Shown here piece after piece: positions 38,682 to 62,218 of a stretch of 64,000 bases of DNA (positions are counted from its first letter, which is position 1; the number at the start of each line of letters is the position of its first letter). Below the pieces are notes generated by a model. The model was not told the origin of the DNA. It did not search any database and saw only the letters and a program-made list of their open reading frames with translations. Source of the DNA: Candidatus Bathyarchaeota archaeon (GTDB lineage: Archaea; Thermoproteota; Bathyarchaeia; Bathyarchaeales; Bathycorpusculaceae); NCBI GenBank assembly GCA_963782525.1, contig CAWAKC010000003.1, forward strand, positions 320,001 through 384,000, in the 5' to 3' direction. Position numbers and translations under genes: made by a program.

Positions 38682-41255
38682 TTATGCTCGTTTTCTGAGT
38701 ATCAACATAGCTAGCACAATTGCCACCACAATGATGGTGACTATTATGCCAAGTGCAGAGTAAAGGATGTATGTGTCAGTCATTGGTGCCGGGGCTGTAG
38801 TTGTTGGTGTTGCTGTAGGGGCTGCTACGCTTACTTCAATGTGGGTTTCAGTGTATGAATCAAAGTACGAGTTGGTGCCTGGGAACGTCGCTGTTATAGT
38901 GTATGCTCCTGAAACTGGAGGTGCCCATGCGATGCTGTAGCTGCCCATGCTGTCGCTGGTTACGTTACCCATGTTTTCGATGTTGCCATTGGGGTCTAAG
39001 GCTGTTAACATTACTGGGACCCCGGTTGCGTTTGTCGGCTTTGGTTTTTGCATGTAAGTGTAATCCATCCATGCGCCCATGTTTGCGTCAGATATTGCCG
39101 GTGAACCTAAGCTGTTTGGCGATATGGCTTTTGTCTGGGTTGTTACACCTGGAGATTGATCGGTGACTGTTCCCTGAATCATGATGCGTGCACCTTGTTG
39201 CAGAATTTCTGGTGTTGCTGTGAGTGTGGTCGCAGTTTGTCCTTTGCCCACACAATATAGTTGTCCATCATAGCCGTTGATGTAGACCATATATCCGTCT
39301 GCGACTGCAAAGCTTCCTCCTATGCCGCCTGATCCTCCGCCTCCTTGTCCATCCATAGTCCATAATTCTTGTCCTGTGTTTGCGTCGATTGCTCGGATAA
39401 GCATGCCTGGGTAAAGTGGGTTGTTGAAGGAGTGTTCAGAGGAGAAGAGATATATTTTGCTGTCTGCGATGGCACCGATGCCCAATGTGTAGTGTCCATA
39501 AGCTGTTGCGAGGCCACTGTTTGTGCTGTTGCCTGCTCCGCCGTTGCCGTATGTCCATTTTAGTTGTCCTGTTGCACTATCGTAGCAGAATACTGTGCCT
39601 TGGTAACCTGTGGAGTAGAAGTTTCCGTATGCGGTTTGGTAGGTGATTAATCCGCCGTACTGTGTTGTATCGCTGTAATATGCCCATGGTCCTTCAGATA
39701 CCGTTGGTCCCCAGAGTTGTGTTCCGTTTGTGAGGCTGTAGCCGATCCATTGACCTGTCTCTTTGAGGTTCATGATGAAGACGCCTGCGTTGGGGTCGAT
39801 GGGTCCTTGGGTTTGAGTTTCGTTGTTTGCTGGGGGATTGTAGCTTTGTTGCCATAGTAATGTGCCGAAGTTGCTTGCTTTTAGACTGATTGCCCACATA
39901 GTAAATGGAGCTGAAGAGCCTATGCCTGGCAATGTTCCGCTTCTGCCAAGAACTAAATCAGGTGTAACTGCAACAATGGTTGATCCTGAAGGCAACGTAG
40001 GTATTGAGATGTTCCACGAATAAGCTGTGCTCATGCTTACGACTTTGCCGACTGGTCTCCACTCTAAAGCACCAGCGCTCGTAGTATCAGATGGTCCTGT
40101 TGAAGCCGTTAATGCCAAGGCTGCCGTGTTGTTCCACATTTGGAGGTATTGTCCGGTGGTTCCAACGTAGTATTTGTCGATGTCACCGTTTGGTCCGATT
40201 GCTATGGTTCCGCCTGAGGGAACGTTGGTTTCGTTGAACAACCAAGCGCCAGTCATTGGGTCATATGCTGACCAGGTTGTGCCAGATGTTGCCCATAAGT
40301 AGCCATTGTTTATGATTCCGTGTTGGTTGAGGGATTCATAGTCGAAGAGTTGACCAAAAGCGATTGTGATGTTTTGCCACCAGATTTGCTGTCCAGTTTG
40401 CAGGTCGAGACAGACTTCACCGCCCCCTGTCGGATTGTTGCTGAGAGGTAATGCCTCGTAGAGGAAGCCGTTAATTATAATGGGTGTAGCTGCTTTCAGC
40501 TCGTAGTATGAGCCTGTGTAGTATGTCATAGCAGGGTCTATGGCGTTGGGGCTGCCGACTAATCCACCGAATTGAATGGGTTTAGTCCAGACTACGTGTG
40601 GGCTATTTGGTGCTATGCCTGTAGGTTGGAAATGGTTGCTCACCAAGGATCCAACTAACCAGTTTGATGCAATCGTGTACCAATTTGAGTTTTGTCCTTC
40701 TATGGGACGTTGCCAATAGTCAGTTGGAAGCGGATAGACTGGAGGTGAAGCAATCGACTCTGACTGTACGTTAAGCGTTACTGCATTGCTGATGCTGGGT
40801 TCATAATAGTCGCCGACGTAGAGGCTGGAGGTGCCGTTGAGGCCTGTTGGACCAGCAAGGGTTGCAATTTGCCCAGGGAAACTGAATTGGAATGTGTAGT
40901 TGCCTGTTGCTGCTGGAGTGTAAGTTATGTAACCGCTGCTAATTGGGTCAGCAGTGATTGGCCCTTGTGTCGTGTTGGTTCCATCAGGTGCTGTTATGGT
41001 GACGGTGTAGTTTTGGAATCTCATTCCAGCGATGCCTGCGGCTGTTGGGGCGATTTGGTTAAGCCAAAAGACCACAATTACAGGTTGGCCCACACCAACT
41101 GGGTTGGGTGCAACGTTGAGGTATGCATAGGTAGGAATGTTCCATTGAGGCGTATGAGCACTAGTATTTGGGATCATTGTGGCTGCAGATGTCATTGAAA
41201 TTATGAATAATATCGTAATCAAAATTGCTGATATTTTATTTTTTGAGGTTTTCAT
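38682..41255 (-). CDS. Secreted PQQ-type beta-propeller repeat surface protein with C-terminal TM anchor (paralog 1)
   Basis: Signal peptide, repeated TG...W blades, WMDYTYMQKPKPTNATGVPV, T/P linker, TM + RKR tail. Confidence 0.88.
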   Translation of the reverse strand: MKTSKNKISAILITILFIISMTSAATMIPNTSAHTPQWNIPTYAYLNVAPNPVGVGQPVIVVFWLNQIAPTAAGIAGMRFQNYTVTITAPDGTNTTQGPITADPISSGYITYTPAATGNYTFQFSFPGQIATLAGPTGLNGTSSLYVGDYYEPSISNAVTLNVQSESIASPPVYPLPTDYWQRPIEGQNSNWYTIASNWLVGSLVSNHFQPTGIAPNSPHVVWTKPIQFGGLVGSPNAIDPAMTYYTGSYYELKAATPIIINGFLYEALPLSNNPTGGGEVCLDLQTGQQIWWQNITIAFGQLFDYESLNQHGIINNGYLWATSGTTWSAYDPMTGAWLFNETNVPSGGTIAIGPNGDIDKYYVGTTGQYLQMWNNTAALALTASTGPSDTTSAGALEWRPVGKVVSMSTAYSWNISIPTLPSGSTIVAVTPDLVLGRSGTLPGIGSSAPFTMWAISLKASNFGTLLWQQSYNPPANNETQTQGPIDPNAGVFIMNLKETGQWIGYSLTNGTQLWGPTVSEGPWAYYSDTTQYGGLITYQTAYGNFYSTGYQGTVFCYDSATGQLKWTYGNGGAGNSTNSGLATAYGHYTLGIGAIADSKIYLFSSEHSFNNPLYPGMLIRAIDANTGQELWTMDGQGGGGSGGIGGSFAVADGYMVYINGYDGQLYCVGKGQTATTLTATPEILQQGARIMIQGTVTDQSPGVTTQTKAISPNSLGSPAISDANMGAWMDYTYMQKPKPTNATGVPVMLTALDPNGNIENMGNVTSDSMGSYSIAWAPPVSGAYTITATFPGTNSYFDSYTETHIEVSVAAPTATPTTTAPAPMTDTYILYSALGIIVTIIVVAIVLAMLILRKRA

Positions 41256-48094: not shown

Positions 48095-48331
48095 ATGGTG
48101 AAAAATGTTATCGATTTAAACGAAAGGGACAGCCGAGTAATCAACATAGTTAAAGCGAAGTATGGGCTCAAAGATAAAAGCCAAGCTTTGAGCGTAATTA
48201 TCCAGCGTTATGAAGAGTGTGAACTTGAACCCCAGCTTAGACCCGAGTTTGTGAAGGAAATAGAGGACACATTTAAGAACGGTAAATTTGTCAAGGTTAA
48301 GAATTTCGCGGAAGAGATCGGGCTAAAGTGA
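48095..48331 (+). CDS. DUF2683-like antitoxin
   Basis: NIVKAKYGLKDKSQA...LEPQLRPEF; GGAGG SD. Confidence 0.78.
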   Translation: MVKNVIDLNERDSRVINIVKAKYGLKDKSQALSVIIQRYEECELEPQLRPEFVKEIEDTFKNGKFVKVKNFAEEIGLK

Positions 48332-48765
48332 TTGCTTGTACAGCCTTGAAATCGAGGAAGAGAGAAATGACCAAAGAAGAGGTTTACAAAGACTACGGCA
48401 TGTTCAGCGGTGTCAAAAGTAGGTTAAAAACCAAAACACGAAGACCCCCAAAGAAACTAAAACAGTGTTCCAAATGCGGCAGAGTAGGCGACGCAATGAC
48501 GAAACATTCACTCACAGGCGAACATAAGCCACCTTTCATATGGCTGTGCAGACAACCGTGCCACGACGAAGTGCACAAGTTTGGCATAAAAATGACTAAA
48601 GAAGAAAAAGCAGCACTAAAGCGGCAGCCACCATGCAGCGTACAATTTCCCACAAAAGACAACATTGCCAATCCATATACAAAACTAATTGAGCCTGAAT
48701 CGCTGGAAGGGGAAAAATTCAAGCAGTCATTCAAGCGAATAAACTCTGAAAATGAAGAAACATAA
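48328..48765 (+). CDS. Small Zn-binding HNH-like protein (probable start ATG ~48367)
   Basis: CSKCGR...MTKHSLTG...WLCRQPCHDEVH resembles the CxxC...H...LCxxCH HNH pattern. Confidence 0.55.
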   Translation: MIACTALKSRKREMTKEEVYKDYGMFSGVKSRLKTKTRRPPKKLKQCSKCGRVGDAMTKHSLTGEHKPPFIWLCRQPCHDEVHKFGIKMTKEEKAALKRQPPCSVQFPTKDNIANPYTKLIEPESLEGEKFKQSFKRINSENEET

Positions 48766-49881: not shown

Positions 49882-52800
49882 ATGAAAAATATGAAAAAAT
49901 TACAAAGCTTAATAATCGTACTCATAGTTTTTTTGTCAATCGGCACACTTGCTAGTATGCCAGCCAAAGCTCAAACAAACACTCTTTCTCAATTTGTCTT
50001 TAATACTCTGAGTACTCCTCAGACTGCTGGTTCTGTTTTCACTATAACGATAACGGCTAAGACTCCAAACGGAAACACCTATACAAGCTACACCGGAATT
50101 AACACTTTAACAGTGTCTTCAGGCACGATTACTCCAACTACCACAACCGCCTTCGTAGCAGGCGTCTGGACTGGCCAAGTAAAACTCTCTCAAGCAGGAA
50201 CAGGCATTTCAATCTCAACCAGCGGTTCCGGCAAATCAGGAACAACTAACAAAATCACTGTTAATCCGGGAGCTCTAGACCGTTATATCTTTAGCACTAT
50301 TAGCAGTCCACAAACCGCAGGAAAAGCTTTCAGCATTACGATAACCGCTAAAGATGCAAACAGCAACACAGTTACAAGTTACACTGGAACCAACACTCTA
50401 ACAGCGTCTTTGGGAACGATTACCCCAATAAGTACTTCTGCATTTGTTGGAGGCGTCTGGACAGGGTCCGTTTCACTTTCTGTATCTAGTTCAGGAACTA
50501 CAATCGGTACATCCGGTTCTTCAAAGTCCGGAACAAGCAACTCGTTCAATGTTAATGCGGGGGCTCTTGACCATTTCATTTTTAGCAGTATTGGCATACA
50601 GACAGTAGGCAGTGCTTTCGGCATAACCATTACGGCTAAAGATGCAAGTGGAAACACAGTCACGAGTTATACAGGAACTAACACTTTATCGGCGTCTGCA
50701 GGAACGATAAGTCCAACCAGCACCGGAAAATTTTCATCAGGCATCTGGACAGGTTCAGTAACTCTATCTGCAGCAGGTTCAGCTATTACAATTAGTACAT
50801 CTGGTTCTTCTAAATTAGCAACAAGCAATTCTTTCACTGTTAATTCGCTATCTCTTGACCATTACGTCTTTAATACTATTAGTACCCCCCAGACAGTGGG
50901 TTCCTCTTTCACCATAACAATAACAGCTAAAGCCTCAAACGGAAACACACTTACCAGCTACACTGGAAGACCGACTTTGAGTGTTTCAACTGGAACGATA
51001 AATCCAACCGTCACTGGCGCCTTCTCGAATGGTGTTTGGACAGGTACAGTTACGACGACTATTGCAGGTTCAGACTTAACTATTATGGCTACTGATGGGA
51101 GCCATTCTGGGACGAGTAACCCGTTTAATGTGAATTCGGGTGCCGCTAATCGTTTGGTGGTTTCAAGTGGGACTTCTCAGGTTGTGGGTGTCGCTTTTTC
51201 CGTAACAGTTACGGCTAAAGATGCATATGGAAACACAGCAACAAGCTACACGGGCAGAGTTCATTTTAGCTCTTCCGACGCTGGATCCGGGGTTAGTTTG
51301 CCAAATGATTACAAGTTCCAACCCGGTGATCTTGGAATCCACACCTTCACTAACGGCGTTACATTGATAACGGTTGCCACAGGTGTCTCGTTTACTGCAA
51401 CTGATACGGTGACTGGCTCGATTGCAGGTTCGCAAACTGGCATCACGGTGACTCGAGCTAGCGTTGTTAATGTTGTGGTTTCTCCTTCTGGCTCATCAGT
51501 TACAGCTGGGTCATCCAATACATATTCAGCAACGGCTTTAGACGCCTATGGTAATACTTGGGATATTACTTCTTTGATTACTTGGAGCATAAGTCCTGAG
51601 GCTGGAGGCTCCTGGAGCGGCAACGTTTTCACTTCTGCGGTTGCTGGTTCATGGACAGTTACAGGAACCTATGCCTCCACAGCTTACACTACCGGATTGA
51701 CAGTGAACCCTGCTGGTCTTGACCATTTTATCTTCAACACTGTTACACCTCAGATAACAGGTTCACCTTTTAACATAACGATTACAGCAAAAGACACGTT
51801 TAACAACACAGCTACAAGCTATACAGGTCAGCCGTCTTTGACATATTCTGCAGGGTCGATTAGTCCAGCTAATATGGATCCTTTTGTTAGCGGTGTAGGA
51901 TCCACTTCAGTTACAGTAAGTATTGCTGGTTTAAACGTTACAATTAAAGCTACTGATAGTACTTCCTTTGGAACAAGTAACTCTTTTTCGGTAAATCCCG
52001 CTATTTCTGCATCTGCAGGTGCCGGCGGCGTTATCAATCCTACTGGAAACGTAAGCGTCAACTATTTCGGCAGTCAAAGCTTCAACATTACAGCCAACAC
52101 TGGCTACTCTATTGTCGATGTAATTGCAGATAACATTTCTCTCGGACCAGTTTCAACTTACACCTTCACAGGTGTTCAGGCAACTCACATGATTACAGCT
52201 ATCTTTGCGATTAATACTTTCAATATTTCTGTCTCTGCTGGAGCAGGCGGCTCTATCAGTCCTAGCGGATCTGTTAGCGTTAACTATGGTGACAGTCAAA
52301 CTTTCAATATAACCGCCAACGCCGATTATCACATAGTTGATGTCTTGGTGAATGCAAGTTCAGTTGGCGCTGTTAACTCGTACACCTTCATTAACCTTCA
52401 GAGCCCAAATACCATCTCTGCAATATTTGCTCCAACACCAACGTCCACACCTTCACCAACAACCACTCAGAATTCTGCTCCCACCCAAACACCTAAACCT
52501 ATAGATGCTCCAACTGAAACGCCATCACCAACGCCAAAACCCTCTCCAACTCCGTTGCCAACAGCCGTACCCGCTAAGACAGATAACGGGGCAACAGTTG
52601 AGCTTGCAATCAATGGAAATATTACTAGTTCACAAATATCCAACGCTGCAATCACAACAAACCAAACTACTGCAACAACCACAGTGTCCTTCACAATAAC
52701 AGGAACAAACGGATCAGTAGGTTTGGGCAATATGACTATTCCAAAAACCGCTATACAGCTCGGAATATCCCCAGTCATTTACATAGACGGCCAGCAAGCC

Positions 52801-53019
52801 TCAAATCAGGGTTACACACAAGACAGCAACAACTTTTACGTATGGTTCACTACGCAATTTAGTGCCCATCAAATGGCAATTCAATTTACAGTACCTTCAA
52901 CCTCGAAAGCATCATCATCTTTGTCTGTATTTGCCGTTCTATTGACCGTTCCCGAAATCGTTTTAATCTATACGGTAATAGCCATCCGTCGCCTAAGACG
53001 AAAACCTGAAAATACATAA
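49882..53019 (+). CDS. Large Thr/Ser-rich surface protein (adhesin-like): tandem Ig-like repeats, two InlB-B-like repeats, P/T linker, C-terminal TM
   Basis: Signal peptide; ~95-aa repeats LDHFxFxTIxxPQTxGxxFxITITAKD...SYTG; SAGAGGSISPSG repeats; TM + RRLRRK. Confidence 0.9.
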   Translation: MKNMKKLQSLIIVLIVFLSIGTLASMPAKAQTNTLSQFVFNTLSTPQTAGSVFTITITAKTPNGNTYTSYTGINTLTVSSGTITPTTTTAFVAGVWTGQVKLSQAGTGISISTSGSGKSGTTNKITVNPGALDRYIFSTISSPQTAGKAFSITITAKDANSNTVTSYTGTNTLTASLGTITPISTSAFVGGVWTGSVSLSVSSSGTTIGTSGSSKSGTSNSFNVNAGALDHFIFSSIGIQTVGSAFGITITAKDASGNTVTSYTGTNTLSASAGTISPTSTGKFSSGIWTGSVTLSAAGSAITISTSGSSKLATSNSFTVNSLSLDHYVFNTISTPQTVGSSFTITITAKASNGNTLTSYTGRPTLSVSTGTINPTVTGAFSNGVWTGTVTTTIAGSDLTIMATDGSHSGTSNPFNVNSGAANRLVVSSGTSQVVGVAFSVTVTAKDAYGNTATSYTGRVHFSSSDAGSGVSLPNDYKFQPGDLGIHTFTNGVTLITVATGVSFTATDTVTGSIAGSQTGITVTRASVVNVVVSPSGSSVTAGSSNTYSATALDAYGNTWDITSLITWSISPEAGGSWSGNVFTSAVAGSWTVTGTYASTAYTTGLTVNPAGLDHFIFNTVTPQITGSPFNITITAKDTFNNTATSYTGQPSLTYSAGSISPANMDPFVSGVGSTSVTVSIAGLNVTIKATDSTSFGTSNSFSVNPAISASAGAGGVINPTGNVSVNYFGSQSFNITANTGYSIVDVIADNISLGPVSTYTFTGVQATHMITAIFAINTFNISVSAGAGGSISPSGSVSVNYGDSQTFNITANADYHIVDVLVNASSVGAVNSYTFINLQSPNTISAIFAPTPTSTPSPTTTQNSAPTQTPKPIDAPTETPSPTPKPSPTPLPTAVPAKTDNGATVELAINGNITSSQISNAAITTNQTTATTTVSFTITGTNGSVGLGNMTIPKTAIQLGISPVIYIDGQQASNQGYTQDSNNFYVWFTTQFSAHQMAIQFTVPSTSKASSSLSVFAVLLTVPEIVLIYTVIAIRRLRRKPENT

Positions 53020-53893: not shown

Positions 53894-55660
53894 CTATTCT
53901 TTCCAGTCAATAATTCCTTTTACCGGATAATAGTGCAGTTTTATTTTGCCATTTACGGACTTCATTTTAATTTCTTCGGCGTTAAACATTATTCTCATCG
54001 GTTGATTAAATTCTTGACTGAGGATATACTTCGCTTTTTCTTTTGATGAAAGGTTTGTGTCTTGTTTGAACATGTTTGCGTTAAGTGATGCTTTTTCTTC
54101 TAGTAGATTGACTTGGTCCTCTGTCAACTGGTAATTAAGGGCTTTGGCTTTTGTGGAATTTCTAATTATGAAATATCTGTCCTTAGGTCTTAGCTGGAGT
54201 TTTTGGCTTTCGATCCACTCGGTTAAAACCTTATCCACGTCGTCATCAAAGGTTGTCTCGCCGGTTGGATCTTTCATTTCAAAGACGACCGTTTGGACTT
54301 TTTTTGCACTGCCAGTTAAACCTATGTTGCTTAAACCGTTAAATCTCGTAAGGACACCCATTGTTGTCCTTTTCATGAATTTCCCTGTGCTCTCCTCACA
54401 AGGAACAATCTTAACATCTAGTTGTTTTACCTCAAACTTCTTCTTATCGGGCGTGATTCTAAAGACAGTGCCGGGGGGTTCACCGGTGGTCGGTTTTGTG
54501 TAGTACTGCCAACCGGGGGGCAATGGCTGTGGGGGTTCGATACCCTTTTTCGTCTTCCACTTCAACCAACCCAATCCAATGATTGAAAATGTGATTATAA
54601 CAGCTGCAGTGACTACTGTAATCAACCAACTGTAGTCGCCTATTGTAGAGTTAGTTGTAGTTGTTGCTCCAGAGGGATACTGTGAGGAAGTAGGTGTTGG
54701 AATACTGCTGCTTTGTATGACAAACTTTTGTATTCGGTCGTTACCAGTATCAGCAACGTATATCCCGCCAGCGTTACCAGCGGTCACGCCAAGAGGATCT
54801 TTGAATTGAGTGTCAGCAGTACCAAAATTTCCCCAAGACAGTAAGAATGTCCCGTCGGTATCGAATTCTTGGATTCGACTATTGAATTGGTCGGCAACAA
54901 AAACATGGTTGTTCTTATCGATTGAAATGCTTGATGGCAAACTGAACTGTCCGTCACCATTTCCATATGATCCCCACGAAGTTATCAAAGTTCCTTCTGA
55001 ACTAAATTTTTGGATTCTATCGTTTGATGTATCAGCAACATACACATTGTCATCTACGTCGCAGGCTATACCATCCGGATGATTAAATTGACCTAAGCTA
55101 TTGCCTTCGCTTCCCCACATCTGCAGGTAAACGGCTGCTGAGTTGAATTTTTGGACTCGCGCATTATCTTGTTCCACGACGTATATGTTGCCATTTTTGT
55201 CAACGGTTACATCTGCCGGCCGCCCAAACTGAGCGTAACCATTGCCTTGGCTACCGAAACTCTTTATGAAAGACCCTGAGGAGCTAAATATTTGGACTCT
55301 GTTGTTCTCCATGTCGGCAACATAAACATTACCGCCTTCATCCACACATGTTCCACTTGGGGAGCTAAATTGCCCGTCTCCAGAGCCGGTCTGGCCCCAA
55401 ATCGACAAGAAGCTTCCAGCAGAGCTAAACTTTTGGATACAATCGTTGTTGCTATCGCTTACATACACGTTACCTTCCGGGTCAACTGCTATTCCAACGG
55501 CTTGGTTAAATTGACCATGATTTGATCCTTCAGATCCCCATTTAAGCGAGAAGACGTACACATCACCCTTTGAAAGGGCAACACAAAAACCTAGAATCAA
55601 TAGAACAACAATTCCCAACATCAGAATGCCTGATATACGATGCCGAAGTCTTGCTGTCAA
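53894..55660 (-). CDS. Signal peptide - six NHL repeats - S/T/P linker - TM - cytoplasmic gasdermin-like domain
   Basis: Six QFxxPxxxxxDxxxxxYVADxxNxRIQxF repeats; TM at aa ~345-366; aa 380-588 follow the bacterial gasdermin motif order by eye. The NHL call is firm; the gasdermin call is tentative. Confidence 0.85.
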   Translation of the reverse strand: MTARLRHRISGILMLGIVVLLILGFCVALSKGDVYVFSLKWGSEGSNHGQFNQAVGIAVDPEGNVYVSDSNNDCIQKFSSAGSFLSIWGQTGSGDGQFSSPSGTCVDEGGNVYVADMENNRVQIFSSSGSFIKSFGSQGNGYAQFGRPADVTVDKNGNIYVVEQDNARVQKFNSAAVYLQMWGSEGNSLGQFNHPDGIACDVDDNVYVADTSNDRIQKFSSEGTLITSWGSYGNGDGQFSLPSSISIDKNNHVFVADQFNSRIQEFDTDGTFLLSWGNFGTADTQFKDPLGVTAGNAGGIYVADTGNDRIQKFVIQSSSIPTPTSSQYPSGATTTTNSTIGDYSWLITVVTAAVIITFSIIGLGWLKWKTKKGIEPPQPLPPGWQYYTKPTTGEPPGTVFRITPDKKKFEVKQLDVKIVPCEESTGKFMKRTTMGVLTRFNGLSNIGLTGSAKKVQTVVFEMKDPTGETTFDDDVDKVLTEWIESQKLQLRPKDRYFIIRNSTKAKALNYQLTEDQVNLLEEKASLNANMFKQDTNLSSKEKAKYILSQEFNQPMRIMFNAEEIKMKSVNGKIKLHYYPVKGIIDWKE

Positions 55661-56208: not shown

Positions 56209-58878
56209 TTATGGTCTTTTTCTGATCATAAGGGCGAGTACGACGCCGACTATTGCTATTGCTATGATGATTGCTACTGCTGCGCCTGCGACGTACATTT
56301 CGGTTTGGGGAATAATGACCTCGGGGTATGGAGATGTTGTTGGTGCTGTGTCGATTGCAGTGAAATGTGCTTCGGCAGACGATGGATAGTATGATGCTGA
56401 ACCTGCGAAGGTAGCTATAACTGTGTAGTCGCCGGCAATATCAGGTGTCCATGTAAAAGCGAATGTACCGCTAGTATCGCTTGTTGTGTTGCCGAGTGGT
56501 CTAAAGTTGCCGTTAGAGTCAACTACGTTGATTGATATTGGGACTCCGGTTGCGTTTGTGGGTTTTGCCTGCTGTTCGTATACATATTCCATCCATGCTT
56601 CTTGGCTTGCATCGGATACACATGGAACACCGTTGGGGAAGTTTGCTGCTTGGGCATTTTGAGTTGTGCCTGCACAGATGTCTGTTATTGTTCCGCTTAT
56701 TACCACTGGTGTTGAAGTTGATACTCCAATGTTAGGTGCTGTGACGGTTGTTTTGCTGGGTCCTTGGCCGATGCAGTATATTTGGTTGTCATAGGCGTTA
56801 AGGGCTAGAAGGAAGCCGTCTCCGATGATAGCGTTGCTGCCGCCGTTTCCTCCTGCGGCCATGTTGACTCCGAATTCCATTATTTTCCATAATTCTGCTC
56901 CGTTTGAAGCGTTTATGCAGCGGAAGTTTGGACCGCGCCAGAGAGGTTGAGAGGGCGAGTGTTCACCGCAGCCAATGTAGATTTTTCCATCTGCCACGCA
57001 GCTAATTGCGCCTGGATAGTTGCCGTATGGGGATTCGAAGCCGACTTGTGCGCATGTGTAGTTCCAGAGTTTTTCTCCTGTTTTGACGTCATAGGCATTG
57101 AGTACGCCGCCGTAGGTGAGTTCTATGATTTTGCCTTGATAGATATTGTACATCATTCCGTAGAAATCTAAGTCTGACACTGGTTCGGTTGGACCCCAGA
57201 GTGGTTGTCCGGTTGCAAGGCTGTAGCCCCAAAGTTGTCGTGTAAGTCCTTGTGCAAAGATGAAGACGCCGTCTTCTGGGTCAATTGGTACTCCGTAGGC
57301 ACCGCTGCCAATGGCCATTGTTCCTCTTGTGCTGTAAACAGTTGATGTTGCTGTGTCTGAATATGGAGGCGTGAAGGTAATGTTCCAGAGAAGCGATGGA
57401 GTAATTATTCCGTTATTATCTGGTTTAAGATTCAAAGCCCATAAATTACCCTGCACCGTCCCACTTGGATCATTTTTCCCTTGAGTTCCACCGATAACGA
57501 ATTGATCTTCACGGACGCAATATATGCTGCCCTGTATCGCTGGAATCGATGCATTCAATGAGAAGCCGTTGTTTCCATCGTAAGTCACGTTTAGGCCAGG
57601 TCGCCACATCCAATAGTTGTTAGCTGTGAAGGCAGAATAGTCACGGTTTTGGTACATAGCTGAAGTGCCCCTCCACCAGATAGCTTGAGTTGTATTCCAT
57701 ACTGTCAGATAGTATCGGGGGTTTGCAGTTGTTCCATAATTGACGATGTTATAGCGTAGTATACTTCCGTCTTTTCCGTAGACCGCTGTACCTGACGACG
57801 ACACGTTTGCTATGCTGCACATGTAGTTACCTGAGAAGGCATCGTACATCATCCAAGTGTTTGCTGTAGCTGCACTAGTGCTCCATAGGTATGGGAAACC
57901 GCCGTGTTGGTTAGGTGATTCGTAGTTGAGTATTTGACCAAATGCCAGTGACTGACCCGGAATACTGCCTGAGGAAGATTGGCTTGGTGCGGTTATTGAA
58001 CCGGTAGTGTTGTAGAAGTAGTCTGTTTGGCCTGTATATAGATCCACGCAATACCAGCCTTCTTTCGGGAGCGATTGAACGTTGTAGTAGAGTTTTCCAT
58101 TCATTATTATTGGTGGAGCAAAAGCTAGGCCTTCGTAGTGGAACGTTTGGTAGCCTATGTCGTTGAATCGTGCATCCATAATGCCTCCAGCCCACATTGG
58201 TCTTGTCCACATTACGTGAGCGCTTTCTGGTCCGTCGCCGTATGCAAAATTGTTAGTTGCGCCAACAGTTTGAGCTGCGCCGGACAACCAGTTTCCGGCA
58301 AGCGTGTACCAGTTTCTATTTAGATCATTTATTGGGCGTGTCCAGTATGCTGATGGGAGAGGAGTCTCTTGCCATTGGGCTATTGGGTCCTGCTGAACGG
58401 TGACTGTAAGTGCGGTGCTTGTGGCGGCTGTAAAAGTGTCGTTCACGTATGTTAGGCTTTGACCGACGGAAGCAGGCGCCAGAGGGTTACCTGTCATCAC
58501 CTGTTGAGCTTGTCTTGCGACGAATGTGTATGTGCCCACTTCAGTAGGTGTGTATGAAGCGTATCCACCTCCAATAGGATCAGAGGTGATTGGTCCTAAC
58601 GAATCATTAGTTCCGCTAGGCTTCATGATGTCCACGTAGAAGATGAATCTGTCACCGTAATCGCCAGTAGCGGTTGGTGGGTAATTATTGCTCCAGAAAA
58701 TAATGTTCTCTTGCTGACCGACGCCTATGACGCTATTTGTGACTGCAATGTAACAATAGTCAACAACAGTCCATGCGGGATAATGAGCTTCAGAGAGAGG
58801 CAAACCGACAAACGAAATAGTGATTGTTAACATCAAAATTATTGCTATCAAAAATGCTATAGTTTTTTTCTTTTCCAT
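56209..58878 (-). CDS. Secreted PQQ-type beta-propeller repeat surface protein (paralog 2)
   Basis: Same architecture as 38682; EAWMEYVYEQQAKPTNATGVPI; TM + RKRP. Confidence 0.88.
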   Translation of the reverse strand: MEKKKTIAFLIAIILMLTITISFVGLPLSEAHYPAWTVVDYCYIAVTNSVIGVGQQENIIFWSNNYPPTATGDYGDRFIFYVDIMKPSGTNDSLGPITSDPIGGGYASYTPTEVGTYTFVARQAQQVMTGNPLAPASVGQSLTYVNDTFTAATSTALTVTVQQDPIAQWQETPLPSAYWTRPINDLNRNWYTLAGNWLSGAAQTVGATNNFAYGDGPESAHVMWTRPMWAGGIMDARFNDIGYQTFHYEGLAFAPPIIMNGKLYYNVQSLPKEGWYCVDLYTGQTDYFYNTTGSITAPSQSSSGSIPGQSLAFGQILNYESPNQHGGFPYLWSTSAATANTWMMYDAFSGNYMCSIANVSSSGTAVYGKDGSILRYNIVNYGTTANPRYYLTVWNTTQAIWWRGTSAMYQNRDYSAFTANNYWMWRPGLNVTYDGNNGFSLNASIPAIQGSIYCVREDQFVIGGTQGKNDPSGTVQGNLWALNLKPDNNGIITPSLLWNITFTPPYSDTATSTVYSTRGTMAIGSGAYGVPIDPEDGVFIFAQGLTRQLWGYSLATGQPLWGPTEPVSDLDFYGMMYNIYQGKIIELTYGGVLNAYDVKTGEKLWNYTCAQVGFESPYGNYPGAISCVADGKIYIGCGEHSPSQPLWRGPNFRCINASNGAELWKIMEFGVNMAAGGNGGSNAIIGDGFLLALNAYDNQIYCIGQGPSKTTVTAPNIGVSTSTPVVISGTITDICAGTTQNAQAANFPNGVPCVSDASQEAWMEYVYEQQAKPTNATGVPISINVVDSNGNFRPLGNTTSDTSGTFAFTWTPDIAGDYTVIATFAGSASYYPSSAEAHFTAIDTAPTTSPYPEVIIPQTEMYVAGAAVAIIIAIAIVGVVLALMIRKRP

Positions 58879-59416: not shown

Positions 59417-62218
59417 TTACGGTCGTTTCCTAAGCATTAAGACGACGATAGCGCCGACTATGGCTATTGCAATGATTATGGCGGCTGTTGAAAGGGCGAA
59501 GTACATTTCTGTATTTGACTGGGCTTGTGCTGGTGCTGGGGACGTTGTTGGTGCTGCTGCGCCTACGTATGCGATAGTATTGGCGCTTGAACTGCCGTAA
59601 GAACTTGATCCTTTGAAGGACGCAATTATCGTGTACTGCCCAGGCACGTCTGGAGTTGTCCACGAGTAGCCAAAGCTGCCGCTTGAATCACTTACTGCGT
59701 CGCCGATATGGATGATGTTGCCGTTGGGGTCAATAGCGTCTATCGATACTGGTACACCGGTTGCGTTTGACGGCTTCGCTTGCTGTTCGTAGATGTATTC
59801 CATCCATGCTTCCTGGCTCTCGTCTGATACTGCGGGGATTCCATTGGTGTAGCCCAATTTGGGACCGTTTGTCTTTGCACCCGGAGACATATCACTTACT
59901 GTACCAGAAATCACGTAGGTGGACCCTGCCGGCATACCTGTCTGTGGCGCAGAGACAGTAGTTGCACTTGGCCCTTTGCCGATGCAATATATCAGGTTGT
60001 CATAGTCACTCGCGGTTACGATGTAGCCATCTGCGATGCCATAGCCTGTTAAGAAGACAGCGTAATTCGCTAGTTTCCAAATCTGTGCTCCATCGGTTGC
60101 GTTTATGCAGTAGATGTATGAGCTGCGCCAGTTGGGTTTAGTGGGAGAGTGCTCGGATGTGTATGTGTAGATTTTTCCGTCGCAAACCGCGCTTATGAAG
60201 ACTGGTTGATTATCGCCGTATGGACTCTCGTAAGGCAAGGCTGTAGCGTTCCAAGTCCACAATTGTTGCCCTGTCTGTACGTCTAAAGCCATGATCTCTC
60301 CTGCATAGTTGTAGTCTGCAAGGACTTTGCCGTAGTATATGTTACTACTTACGCCGTAGTAGTACATCTGCTGAGTGGTAGCTGTATTTGGTCCCCACAA
60401 AAGGGTTCCATCTTTCAAGCTGTAGCCCCATAGCTGACCTGTTTGTTTGCAGTTCAAGATGAAAACTTGGTCGTCATAACTTATGCCGCCCAAGAGCCAG
60501 GTATAGTTCAGGCCAGGTAATGGAACCGTCAATTGTTTGTTGTAAACCAGAGTAGCTGTGAAGCCAAGGTTGGTTTGCCATGTGGAAGGTAGGCCGGGAT
60601 AAGGACTATAATCTGCTGCGTGGTCGTTAATGTTCACAAGCCATACTGAAAACGTGTCCGGTGAAGGTCCACCGCCGATTGAGCTGGTTCCTATGCTGGC
60701 GTAGCCGAATAGCTGTTTCGGAACACGATTATCGTCTTGCAAGACTGCAGTGAAGCCCACTGACGATGCACCGTAAGCAGCGGAAACAGGCAGGTTCTTG
60801 TCTATTGTTACGTTCATTGAGTATCCAGAATGCGGTTTGGACATCGCGGCCAGTAAATCCGGCTCTAGACCAACACTCCAGGCTCCGGGAGCCCACGAAG
60901 TATCGTTGACAGCGTCTATTACTCCTCCTATGCGAGGTTTCCATTGTTGTTGCGTTGTTCCTATGGCTCCCCCTGGATAGATAGCTTGGCTGGAATTCCA
61001 GCAGAGTACGTTGCCTGTGCTAGGATTGTAGCTGTAAATCAATAAGTCTCCGTTTTCGTCCACCGCAGACGTACCTGATGGCACGTTTTTCAGCGTAAGC
61101 ATCCAATTTCCTGTTGCCGCATCAAGCATGTACCATGTGGTGCCGGACTGCATCCAAAGGTATGAGAGCACTCCATTTCCGTTCACGCCGTACCAGTGGT
61201 AGAGTTGTCCTTGGGTCAGCCGCGGAAAACTCTGAGAGAGAGCAGGAGCCCCTCCTCCAAAAGCGCCAGTTGTAGGGGCGGTTATACCGTTGAGGCCGTT
61301 GTCAGTGCCGTTCTTATACCATACTATTTCTCCTGTGTATAGATCTCTGCAATAGTATCCGTACTGCACACTGTCGCCGACGGCTGGTGTATTGTAGTAG
61401 ATTTTTCCGTTCATAATAATCTGCGATTGGAATGACTGCTCGTAGTCTTCAGGGTTCGAGGAGATACCAGGCCACTGTGCGTCAAGAATGCCTCCGCTGC
61501 GAGCTGGCTGTATATCCTGTGTCCACATTATGTGGGCGCTTTCCGGTCCGGTCCCCGCTGGTTGGAACCCATAGGGATTCCAGCCGCCTCCACCGCCAAA
61601 CGCACTGCCGCCCAGCCAGTTGCTCGCGAGCATCGACCATCCTCTGTTCATGTCGTTTATTGGCACTTCCCAGTAGTCTGTTGGAAGCGCAGGTTCTTGC
61701 CAACTAGCTACTGGCTCTTGTTGTACGTTAAGATACGCTGGTTTGCTTGTGGAACCTCCGTAGAAATCACCGATGGAAGGACTCGTCGGGACAGCAGGGC
61801 TGGCTTTTACTGTTTCTCCGGGCCAGCTGAATATGATGGTGTAATTGCCGATCTGATCTGGGACGTATACTTTAGAATCGGCGCCGACATCACTTGCGCA
61901 TTGAAATGGTCCGATAGTATCGTTGGTTCCGTCTGGTTTTATAATGTCGATTTTGAAGCCGTTCCAACGCTGTCCGATTCCACCGCCAGCAGTCGGCGAA
62001 TACCTATCAACCCACACTACAATAGTTGTGTATTGGCCGAGGCCGACGGTGCTTGGTGACAAAGCAACGTAAGCGTTCGTTGGAACATTCATTGCGTTAA
62101 CATTTGGCAATGCATAGCAGTTTACGGCAATAGTTAGCATCAGAATTAAAGCAATCAATGAAAGAAGTTTCTTGTGAAACAATTTCATCTTTCTTATTTC
62201 CTTAAAAGTATAGTACAC
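59417..62218 (-). CDS. Secreted PQQ-type beta-propeller repeat surface protein (paralog 3; start probably MKLFHKK)
   Basis: GPESAHIMWT, IIMNGKIYYN, EHSPTKP, EAWMEYIYEQQAKPSNATGVPV; TM + RKRP. Confidence 0.88.
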   Translation of the reverse strand: MYYTFKEIRKMKLFHKKLLSLIALILMLTIAVNCYALPNVNAMNVPTNAYVALSPSTVGLGQYTTIVVWVDRYSPTAGGGIGQRWNGFKIDIIKPDGTNDTIGPFQCASDVGADSKVYVPDQIGNYTIIFSWPGETVKASPAVPTSPSIGDFYGGSTSKPAYLNVQQEPVASWQEPALPTDYWEVPINDMNRGWSMLASNWLGGSAFGGGGGWNPYGFQPAGTGPESAHIMWTQDIQPARSGGILDAQWPGISSNPEDYEQSFQSQIIMNGKIYYNTPAVGDSVQYGYYCRDLYTGEIVWYKNGTDNGLNGITAPTTGAFGGGAPALSQSFPRLTQGQLYHWYGVNGNGVLSYLWMQSGTTWYMLDAATGNWMLTLKNVPSGTSAVDENGDLLIYSYNPSTGNVLCWNSSQAIYPGGAIGTTQQQWKPRIGGVIDAVNDTSWAPGAWSVGLEPDLLAAMSKPHSGYSMNVTIDKNLPVSAAYGASSVGFTAVLQDDNRVPKQLFGYASIGTSSIGGGPSPDTFSVWLVNINDHAADYSPYPGLPSTWQTNLGFTATLVYNKQLTVPLPGLNYTWLLGGISYDDQVFILNCKQTGQLWGYSLKDGTLLWGPNTATTQQMYYYGVSSNIYYGKVLADYNYAGEIMALDVQTGQQLWTWNATALPYESPYGDNQPVFISAVCDGKIYTYTSEHSPTKPNWRSSYIYCINATDGAQIWKLANYAVFLTGYGIADGYIVTASDYDNLIYCIGKGPSATTVSAPQTGMPAGSTYVISGTVSDMSPGAKTNGPKLGYTNGIPAVSDESQEAWMEYIYEQQAKPSNATGVPVSIDAIDPNGNIIHIGDAVSDSSGSFGYSWTTPDVPGQYTIIASFKGSSSYGSSSANTIAYVGAAAPTTSPAPAQAQSNTEMYFALSTAAIIIAIAIVGAIVVLMLRKRP

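Follow-up and report, generated by a model that had tools for sequence, protein, structure and literature searches.

A Bathyarchaeota gene predicted to join a surface NHL propeller to a cytoplasmic domain probably related to bacterial gasdermins

Introduction

Descriptions of prokaryotic gasdermins present them as soluble proteins that bear a lipid modification and are switched on by a neighbouring protease. We have analysed a gene located at positions 53894 to 55660 of a 64,000-nucleotide stretch of DNA from a Candidatus Bathyarchaeota archaeon (assembly GCA_963782525.1, contig CAWAKC010000003.1, positions 320,001 to 384,000), the whole of which is referred to here as the window. The original prediction, made from the sequence, had read this gene as a receptor-gasdermin fusion in which an extracellular NHL propeller is connected through a transmembrane (TM) helix to a gasdermin-like domain. 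In the analysis reported here, profile comparisons indicate that the cytoplasmic domain is very probably a remote gasdermin homolog and that its relatives likely constitute an unnamed, membrane-tethered sister family of the bacterial gasdermins (bGSDMs).

The available text of the founding study reports that 43 of 50 bGSDMs lie adjacent to a protease and 7 do not (2021 bioRxiv preprint), and describes the short C-terminal peptide of bGSDMs as autoinhibitory (2021 bioRxiv preprint). The bGSDM palmitoyl group is proposed, in the accessible part of PMC10153256, to enter the membrane ahead of the strands. The nearest precedent for a protease-free trigger is fungal RCD-1, a gasdermin-like protein which, according to the portion of PMC13475620 available, lacks a repressor domain and is activated without cleavage when two forms associate. 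Pyroptolysins, gasdermin-CDC chimeras, occur in bacteria and archaea, mostly as solitary genes, and carry a C-terminal CDC-like Ig beta-sandwich, as far as the accessible text goes (2026 preprint); gasdermins proper are stated in the same accessible portion to act invariably from within cells (2026 preprint).

The family described here resembles the bGSDMs (PDB 7N50, 7N51 and 8SL0; NF051890; PDLC02986) in profile homology over ∼135–220 columns, in a domain of ∼210–260 amino acids followed by a short C-terminal tail, in a membrane-directing N-terminal element and, for the bacterial relatives, in the occurrence of operons with putative proteases. The two differ in that bGSDMs carry an N-terminal Cys where the family has a TM helix, a lipobox or a polybasic peptide, and in that the described bGSDM partners are caspase-like proteases whereas the family partners are HExxH proteins without a known family. 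The window protein is further set apart by a large ectodomain, the lack of a partner and scores below the curated cut-offs. Compared by description only, RCD-1 is unlike the window protein in being soluble, eukaryotic and without an ectodomain or TM helix. Pyroptolysins are, like the family, another lineage re-deploying the gasdermin fold; in contrast to them, the family combines N-terminal anchors with a tail of only ∼19–30 amino acids, and its bacterial members have HExxH partners. Identity of the window protein as a pyroptolysin was considered and rejected, as the protein ends 19 amino acids past the gasdermin-like core and has no CDC-like Ig beta-sandwich; no pyroptolysin chain was present among the PDB sequence matches of the three family profiles introduced below. 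The ectodomain itself is an ordinary six-bladed NHL propeller, as in other NHL surface proteins. Full-text literature searches returned no description of an NHL protein with a gasdermin-like cytoplasmic domain, no TM-anchored, receptor-fused or metalloprotease-linked prokaryotic gasdermin (supplements, outside the scope of these searches, may hold cases) and no gasdermin described in Bathyarchaeia. Within the literature reachable, the earlier statement that this architecture is undescribed therefore holds.

Results

Gene and protein layout

The open reading frame (ORF) and its parts are given below in window coordinates, together with the evidence for each.

53894..55660, minus strand: whole ORF, 588 amino acids plus stop, TTG start; an ortholog at locus L002 is 84% identical over the C-terminal domain, and the gene is under purifying selection
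55565..55660, minus strand: amino acids 1–32, basic n-region and hydrophobic core (hydropathy scan, amino acids 11–29); a presumed signal peptide or N-terminal anchor
54707..55549, minus strand: amino acids ∼38–318, six-bladed NHL beta-propeller ectodomain (Pfam PF01436 NHL, 6 stretches, E 8.5e-47; DUF5128, E 5.9e-17)
54626..54706, minus strand: amino acids 319–345, stalk rich in Ser, Thr and Pro, recognised by composition; fast-evolving, 52% identity to the ortholog
54545..54625, minus strand: amino acids 346–372, TM helix (346–364/366) and basic stop-transfer sequence KWKTKK (367–372), from the hydropathy scan
54515..54544, minus strand: amino acids 373–382, Pro-rich juxtamembrane linker, from sequence
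53954..54514, minus strand: amino acids 383–569, core of the gasdermin-like domain, from family membership and a profile link to bGSDMs whose confidently aligned part is amino acids 436–569
53897..53953, minus strand: amino acids 570–588, conserved C-terminal tail located where bGSDMs have their inhibitory peptide, from family-wide conservation and a ratio of nonsynonymous to synonymous substitution rates (dN/dS) of 0.06

The Pfam scan, the hydropathy scan and the translation bear out the layout originally proposed, namely a presumed signal peptide, six NHL repeats, a stalk, a TM helix with its basic stop and a domain of ∼210 amino acids; the peptide strings quoted at that time are all present in the translation and amino acid 380 does correspond to nucleotide 54523. 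The ectodomain scores 155.4 bits against an NHL gathering cut-off of 20, with the 6-bladed propeller model DUF5128 matching as well, and the hydrophobic segments detected are amino acids 11–29 and 346–364. The last 214 amino acids (P0002, amino acids 375–588) are without a TM segment, and no Cys is found at the start of the domain, the TM helix standing before it instead. The positive-inside rule would place the propeller outside and the last ∼210 amino acids in the cytoplasm, so that the predicted gene product is a type-I membrane protein of a Bathyarchaeota-type archaeon. Amino acids 90–175, within the NHL repeats, are also matched by positions 352–432 (of 452) of the PADLOC model PD-T4-6, at E 1.6e-11; as a defence assignment this match was rejected, as it falls in the NHL repeats and probably reflects shared repeat similarity.

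In the public gene call (P0003), Met14 inside the ORF is taken as the start, giving 575 amino acids. The ortholog at L002, from another Bathyarchaeota assembly, opens with TTG and has no Met at the position of Met14, and the longer, 588 amino acid form is therefore favoured. Relative to this ortholog, dN/dS is 0.11 for the ectodomain, 0.08 for the cytoplasmic domain and 0.06 for the last 20 amino acids, at a dS of ∼1. With ratios of 0.06–0.11 against an 84%-identical ortholog, the gene is taken to be real and constrained. The family domain is present in a single copy in the genome from which the window derives.

The cytoplasmic domain family

An exhaustive phmmer search with amino acids 375–588 detected 194 representative clusters at E≤1e-3, 83 of them at ≤1e-10, and the family is described here from the best 150 of the 194 matches. 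Most members are ∼250 amino acids long and carry an N-terminal anchor, the domain beginning near residue 30–45. Three types of tether were read from the N-termini: a single TM helix, a polybasic peptide at the N-terminus of proteins without such a helix, and a lipoprotein-type signal with a lipobox Cys. As all three occur, the family appears to be present on both faces of the membrane. Three profiles were constructed, representing the whole family (A1, 116 members), the close subfamily (A2, 30 sequences) and a distant, lipoprotein-type subfamily (A3, 33 sequences); A2 and A3 align to one another over 212 columns with an hhalign probability of 100% (E 5.9e-52), consistent with a single family. 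The C-terminal tail is conserved across the family, and in the comparison with the L002 ortholog its constraint equals that of the domain core.

Additional fusions were observed within the family. At L009 (4789–6450) the domain is fused to a C-terminal DUF900 alpha/beta-hydrolase (Pfam E 8.9e-45), and 555 amino acid ORFs in L041, L046 and L049 resemble this type of fusion by look only, without a domain scan. In P0116, a second TM helix is followed by an FGE-sulfatase domain.

Relationship to bacterial gasdermins

The bGSDM reference alignment (A5) was composed of four sequences: three bona fide bGSDMs, scoring 134–165 bits against the curated 100-bit cut-off and found in 3 of the 401 genomes sampled from the phylum of G003, and P0164, a bGSDM-like ORF which scores 56 bits against NF051890 and matches 7n51 and 8sl0 at ∼6e-6. 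The hhalign comparisons were targeted at A5 and not database-wide. With the whole-family profile A1, the top PDB match is 7n50_A, annotated 'Gasdermin', at E 4.6e-4 and co-linear, the runner-up being at E 0.2. Scanned singly, 36 of 116 family members match the PADLOC bGSDM model (best 2e-7) and 27 of 116 match NCBIfam prok_gasdermin (best 6.6e-8). Against A5, A1 reaches a probability of 94.2% in local mode (E 1.2e-7, 133 columns) and 90% over 217 columns in global mode, with A3 reaching 96.2% globally (E 1.5e-9, 219 columns); the global alignment sets the N-terminal G-W...P of the family on the G-Y...P of the bGSDMs.

These scores are well separated from those of the controls. None of 100 column-permuted A5 alignments reached the real scores of A1, A2 or A3 (54.6, 31.8 and 64.0, respectively, versus permuted maxima of 23.4, 24.0 and 21.9), and unrelated real alignments (A6–A8) gave hhalign probabilities of ≤1.2%. 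P0164 scored 32.6, 19.1 and 32.0 bits against A1, A2 and A3, the best of 500 shuffles being 6.2–7.3 bits. In the reverse test, in which a hidden Markov model (HMM) was built from A5 only, 82 of 161 family proteins scored above the best of 161 shuffles (3.9 bits). With this HMM the window domain (P0002) scores 11.1 bits, a value reached by 0 of 2000 shuffles (best 9.8), and P0009, which is 49% identical to it, scores 21.1 bits. The part of the domain aligning to bGSDM profiles ends at amino acid 569, leaving a 19 amino acid tail; a tail had been anticipated at the position of the inhibitory peptide and is indeed located there, its length being 19 rather than the ∼25 residues first estimated.

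A number of observations weigh against a gasdermin assignment for this domain. The link is remote and transitive, running through family profiles. On its own, the window domain gives no match in Pfam, PADLOC, NCBIfam or PDB sequences at E≤1 or 10, searching the genome of the window with the PADLOC bGSDM model did not find the gene, and 0 of the 10 closest relatives scanned matches a bGSDM model. Of 10 further members, three match NF051890 at 15.5–17.2 bits against the 100-bit cut-off, which no family member scanned comes near. Taken alone, the close subfamily A2 reaches 21.9% locally and 1.3% globally against A5, and E 0.72 against 7n50 (rank 4 of 7); for A3, 7n50 is the sole PDB match, at a weak E of 0.28. 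The high-confidence alignment covers amino acids 436–569 only, that is, the C-terminal two thirds, the N-terminal ∼60 residues aligning in global mode only and with low column confidence. The conserved N-terminal Cys, which is palmitoylated in bGSDMs, is absent from the window domain, and conservation of the residues invariant in the family (G23, R27, D98 and R126 of the domain) is not seen in the bGSDM alignment. As the protein stays below the curated cut-off and lacks both the N-terminal Cys and an adjacent protease, it is not filed as a bGSDM.

It is improbable, in our estimation, that the resemblance is spurious or convergent and that the domain has a different fold with some other cytoplasmic role. 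Such an explanation would account for the insignificance of every direct comparison made with the window domain and for the transitive nature of the link, and it draws on the small size of the reference (four sequences) and the targeted design of the hhalign comparisons. It has to contend with three independent profiles that are co-linear, in consistent register, with two PDB gasdermins and P0164; with the reverse HMM, the shuffled sequences and the permuted columns, each of which separates the real comparisons from the null; with a gasdermin as the top or sole PDB match of A1 and A3; and with a domain size, tail and protease linkage that all fit gasdermins. A confident match to an unrelated family was looked for in Pfam, PADLOC, NCBIfam and PDB sequences and none was found. 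Combined, these results favour remote homology: the gasdermin-like character first proposed stands at the level of sequence profiles, and falls short in that the domain has no direct match to gasdermin models and its close subfamily reaches only 21.9%.

In 400 genomes of the class of G001, NF051890 gave one sub-threshold match, a frameshifted gene carrying the precomputed family tag PF26164; a word-index search with this gene returned itself only and tblastn against plasmids returned none. The bGSDM-like gene of G007 (L013, 175–1000) is split over two frames as ORFs of 113 and 175 amino acids and looks frameshifted.

HExxH partner genes in bacteria

In three bacterial loci (L004, L006 and L010) a same-strand gene for a protein of 437–487 amino acids, termed type A, abuts the family gene upstream; the type-A proteins are mutually homologous, with E values down to 5e-50. 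A different gene, type B, encoding 443–457 amino acids, is located downstream of the family gene in L011 and L015. Both types contain an invariant HExxH motif and an invariant Glu 19–21 residues further on; in type A, all 9 of the diverged sequences aligned keep the H, E and H as well as a Glu located 21 residues beyond the second His. We take this His/Glu spacing to be that of thermolysin-type gluzincins. No Pfam family or informative PDB match was obtained for the type A or B partners, and the label 'protease' therefore rests on the invariant motifs, by which the partners are putative proteases of a gluzincin-like, HExxH type.

The association was also apparent in a metagenome set of 54 loci, 52 of which contain a family ORF, falling into 46 groups at ≥95% identity; at least 400 bp of upstream sequence were available for 31. 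A type-A homolog is directly upstream on the same strand in 20 of these 31 assessable loci, and in 17 of the 24 with at least 1400 bp upstream, with a different HExxH protein upstream at one further locus. A third, mutually homologous HExxH family (HEYGH, 433–457 amino acids) is convergent downstream at L036, L045 and L050. At these three loci, apparently from high-GC organisms, the HEYGH gene abuts or overlaps the family gene on the opposite strand. Two of the loci with 555 amino acid ORFs (L041 and L049) keep a type-A HExxH gene upstream. Thus, in bacteria the family is usually, as judged from gene order, one half of a two-gene system with an HExxH partner.

The predicted compartment of the partner is that of the family protein in 5 of 5 genome pairs, as read from the N-termini. 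At L011 (3569–5734, Zoogloea oryzae) and L015 (5911–8064, Eleftheria terrae megaplasmid), lipobox-bearing family members adjoin lipoprotein-type HExxH proteins. Predicted export of both members of these pairs suggests a gasdermin-like/metalloprotease pair outside the cytoplasm.

For the cytoplasmic pair of L010, the modelled complex gave an ipSAE of 0.65, the best control giving 0.23; the mark used for this score was attained by 58 of the 80 solved complexes, compared with 2 of the 110 mismatched pairs, counts which are approximate, own alignments having been supplied. At least 85% of contacts are common to the runs and partner pLDDT is ≥73. The model supports binding of the L010 family protein to its HExxH partner. 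The modelled interface involves residues 1–8 of the family protein and residues 14–49 of the partner, and not the tail in the active site, an arrangement that tells against a gasdermin-like way of working and is a poor fit to a simple picture in which the protease cuts the tail.

Archaeal context and exchanged ectodomains

The original prediction had noted that the domain is tethered to a surface propeller and has no protease beside it; a Pfam scan of 9 neighbouring ORFs and a search for nearby HExxH ORFs likewise revealed none. Rather than defence genes, the neighbourhood contains genes for surface proteins, for a glycosyltransferase and for an enzyme of the glycogen-branching type. Five archaeal-type genomes (G000, from which the window derives, G962, G005, G1106 and G1107) were searched with a type-A profile and yielded no match at E≤0.1, other protease families being outside this search; on a control genome the same profile gave E 3e-206. 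This lack of both partner and defence genes argues against a bGSDM-like role for the window gene. At the window, L002, L007, L008 and G962 the neighbours are mutually unrelated, mostly housekeeping or surface genes, and no adjacent protease gene is present at L002, L007, L008 or G962.

A possible conserved partner, the Rce1-like protease encoded two genes upstream of the ortholog at L002, was dismissed, as it was not found in the genome of the window with that query; a further reason is that the 155 amino acid gene between the two is multi-copy elsewhere. This gene (L002, 6087–6554) has four homologs in the window genome (G000 contigs C10, C7 and C1), two at 72–73% identity and one with in-frame TAG stops, and resembles a mobile or multi-copy element.

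These observations bear on the possibility that canonical gasdermin logic operates through an unlinked activator, a protease encoded elsewhere removing the tail and the ectodomain serving only to localise the protein. We regard this as quite unlikely. It is in keeping with a constrained, conserved tail in the place of the inhibitory peptide of bGSDMs, with the protease linkage of the bacterial relatives and with the 7 of 50 bGSDMs not adjacent to a protease in the available text of the founding study (2021 preprint), but the absence of a type-A partner from the five archaeal-type genomes and of any conserved neighbour among the window, L002, L007, L008 and G962 speaks against it.

Long forms share one layout, a variable ectodomain followed by a single TM helix and the family domain, the ectodomains of relatives consisting of NHL, PD40, BNR/YCF48-type or DUF5122 propellers, PKD/Ig domains or PA14. 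In a FastTree phylogeny of 149 of 161 domain sequences (12 fragments were dropped), a single clade of 15 leaves, with a support of 0.78, contains all 11 receptor-type representatives; its parent node, which adds sister short TM forms and two C-terminal-fusion forms, has a support of 0.95. Within one receptor-type subclade the terminal peptide is missing in 4 of 5 members, a further point against a gasdermin-like mechanism, and tail autoinhibition is therefore not universal. The module is rare and patchy, being found in 1 of 300 other genomes of the class and 1 of 14 in the genus. In the same-genus genome it is 54–55% identical and is located behind a BNR-type propeller and PKD at a non-syntenic site. 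In this one archaeal clade, then, the partner is missing from the sequences searched and the module is found behind what appear to be interchangeable surface ectodomains. The closest metagenome relative (L027, 3–1252; 51% identity) is also receptor-type and is seemingly frameshifted at the TM/domain junction, reflecting either a pseudogene or a sequencing error.

The window gene is situated in an island of surface proteins (window 38682–41255, 56209–58878 and 59417–62218, minus strand; 49882–53019, plus strand) comprising three paralogous PQQ/BamB-like propeller proteins of ∼860–930 amino acids, 34–39% identical with E values down to 1e-167, and a 1045 amino acid protein of repeated Ig-like units. 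These proteins have a common layout of signal, ectodomain, stalk rich in Ser, Thr and Pro, C-terminal TM helix and short basic tail. The ectodomains of two relatives of the window protein match the repeats of its 1045 amino acid neighbour at 39% identity. Elsewhere in the window, a DUF2683 gene (48095–48331, plus strand; E 1.2e-9) has a 4-base overlap with the start of a 145 amino acid Cys/His-rich ORF without a Pfam family (48328–48765, plus strand), and the two may form a small two-gene module.

The island is relevant to an explanation that we consider possible though on balance doubtful, in which the domain, though of gasdermin descent, no longer kills and acts as a non-lytic, membrane-proximal module (for membrane binding or anchoring, or giving a small, regulated leak or signal) serving a surface adhesin or enzyme, the extracellular job of the propeller being the real function. 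Location of the gene among surface-anchored proteins sharing its signal-ectodomain-stalk-TM layout is what this explanation would lead one to expect, yet the other surface proteins of the window manage without the domain, and the patchy distribution, with 1 of 14 same-genus genomes carrying it, is unlike that of core envelope machinery. The ectodomain is under strong purifying, not diversifying, selection (dN/dS 0.11), again in line with a non-lytic role, whereas the tail is constrained as much as the core. The lack of a type-A partner in the five archaeal-type genomes is likewise in agreement with such a role, while the genes of the bacterial relatives form tight operons with those of putative proteases, as bGSDM genes do. 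Persistence of tail-less receptor-type forms, hard to square with a constitutively lethal pore, and the family-invariant residues not common to bGSDMs also favour it.

Discussion

Beyond the homology itself, the chance that the domain keeps the gasdermin way of working, as a latent membrane-permeabilising module or effector, is in our view somewhat short of even. The mechanism would be as follows. With the NHL propeller and glycan-type stalk outside, one TM helix, and the ∼210 amino acid gasdermin-like domain inside, an N-terminal tether, placed where bGSDMs carry a palmitoyl-Cys, would keep a latent module against the inner side of the membrane. The TM tether would take the role of the bGSDM palmitoyl, and the conserved C-terminal tail would restrain the module as it does in bGSDMs. 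The pore route could accommodate an anchor at the N-terminus, given the proposal for bGSDMs that the palmitoyl inserts first and the strands follow. In archaea, without a partner, the trigger could be ectodomain-driven clustering, for which RCD-1-type, cleavage-independent assembly offers a precedent, or an unlinked protease. Activation triggered by the ectodomain is speculative and unlikely. The full proposal is rather unlikely: a one-component archaeal TM 'death receptor', in which a ligand, virus or neighbouring cell clusters the ectodomains to give a protease-free pore in abortive infection or, as for fungal RCD-1, allorecognition, within a superfamily having a large tethered branch that acts on either membrane face. 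Were this proposal correct, the tethered branch would include periplasmic lipoprotein forms paired with lipoprotein metalloproteases.

The likely sister family, with 194 representative clusters, would be distinct from the bGSDMs in three ways: a permanent tether, a different class of putative metalloprotease and occurrence on both membrane faces. If the domain still forms pores, the superfamily would have its first receptor-to-pore fusion in the window protein, which would provide a simple system for studying cleavage-free triggering of gasdermin-like pores and regulated cell death in archaea. Even if the domain is non-lytic, it would show the re-use of a death effector fold.

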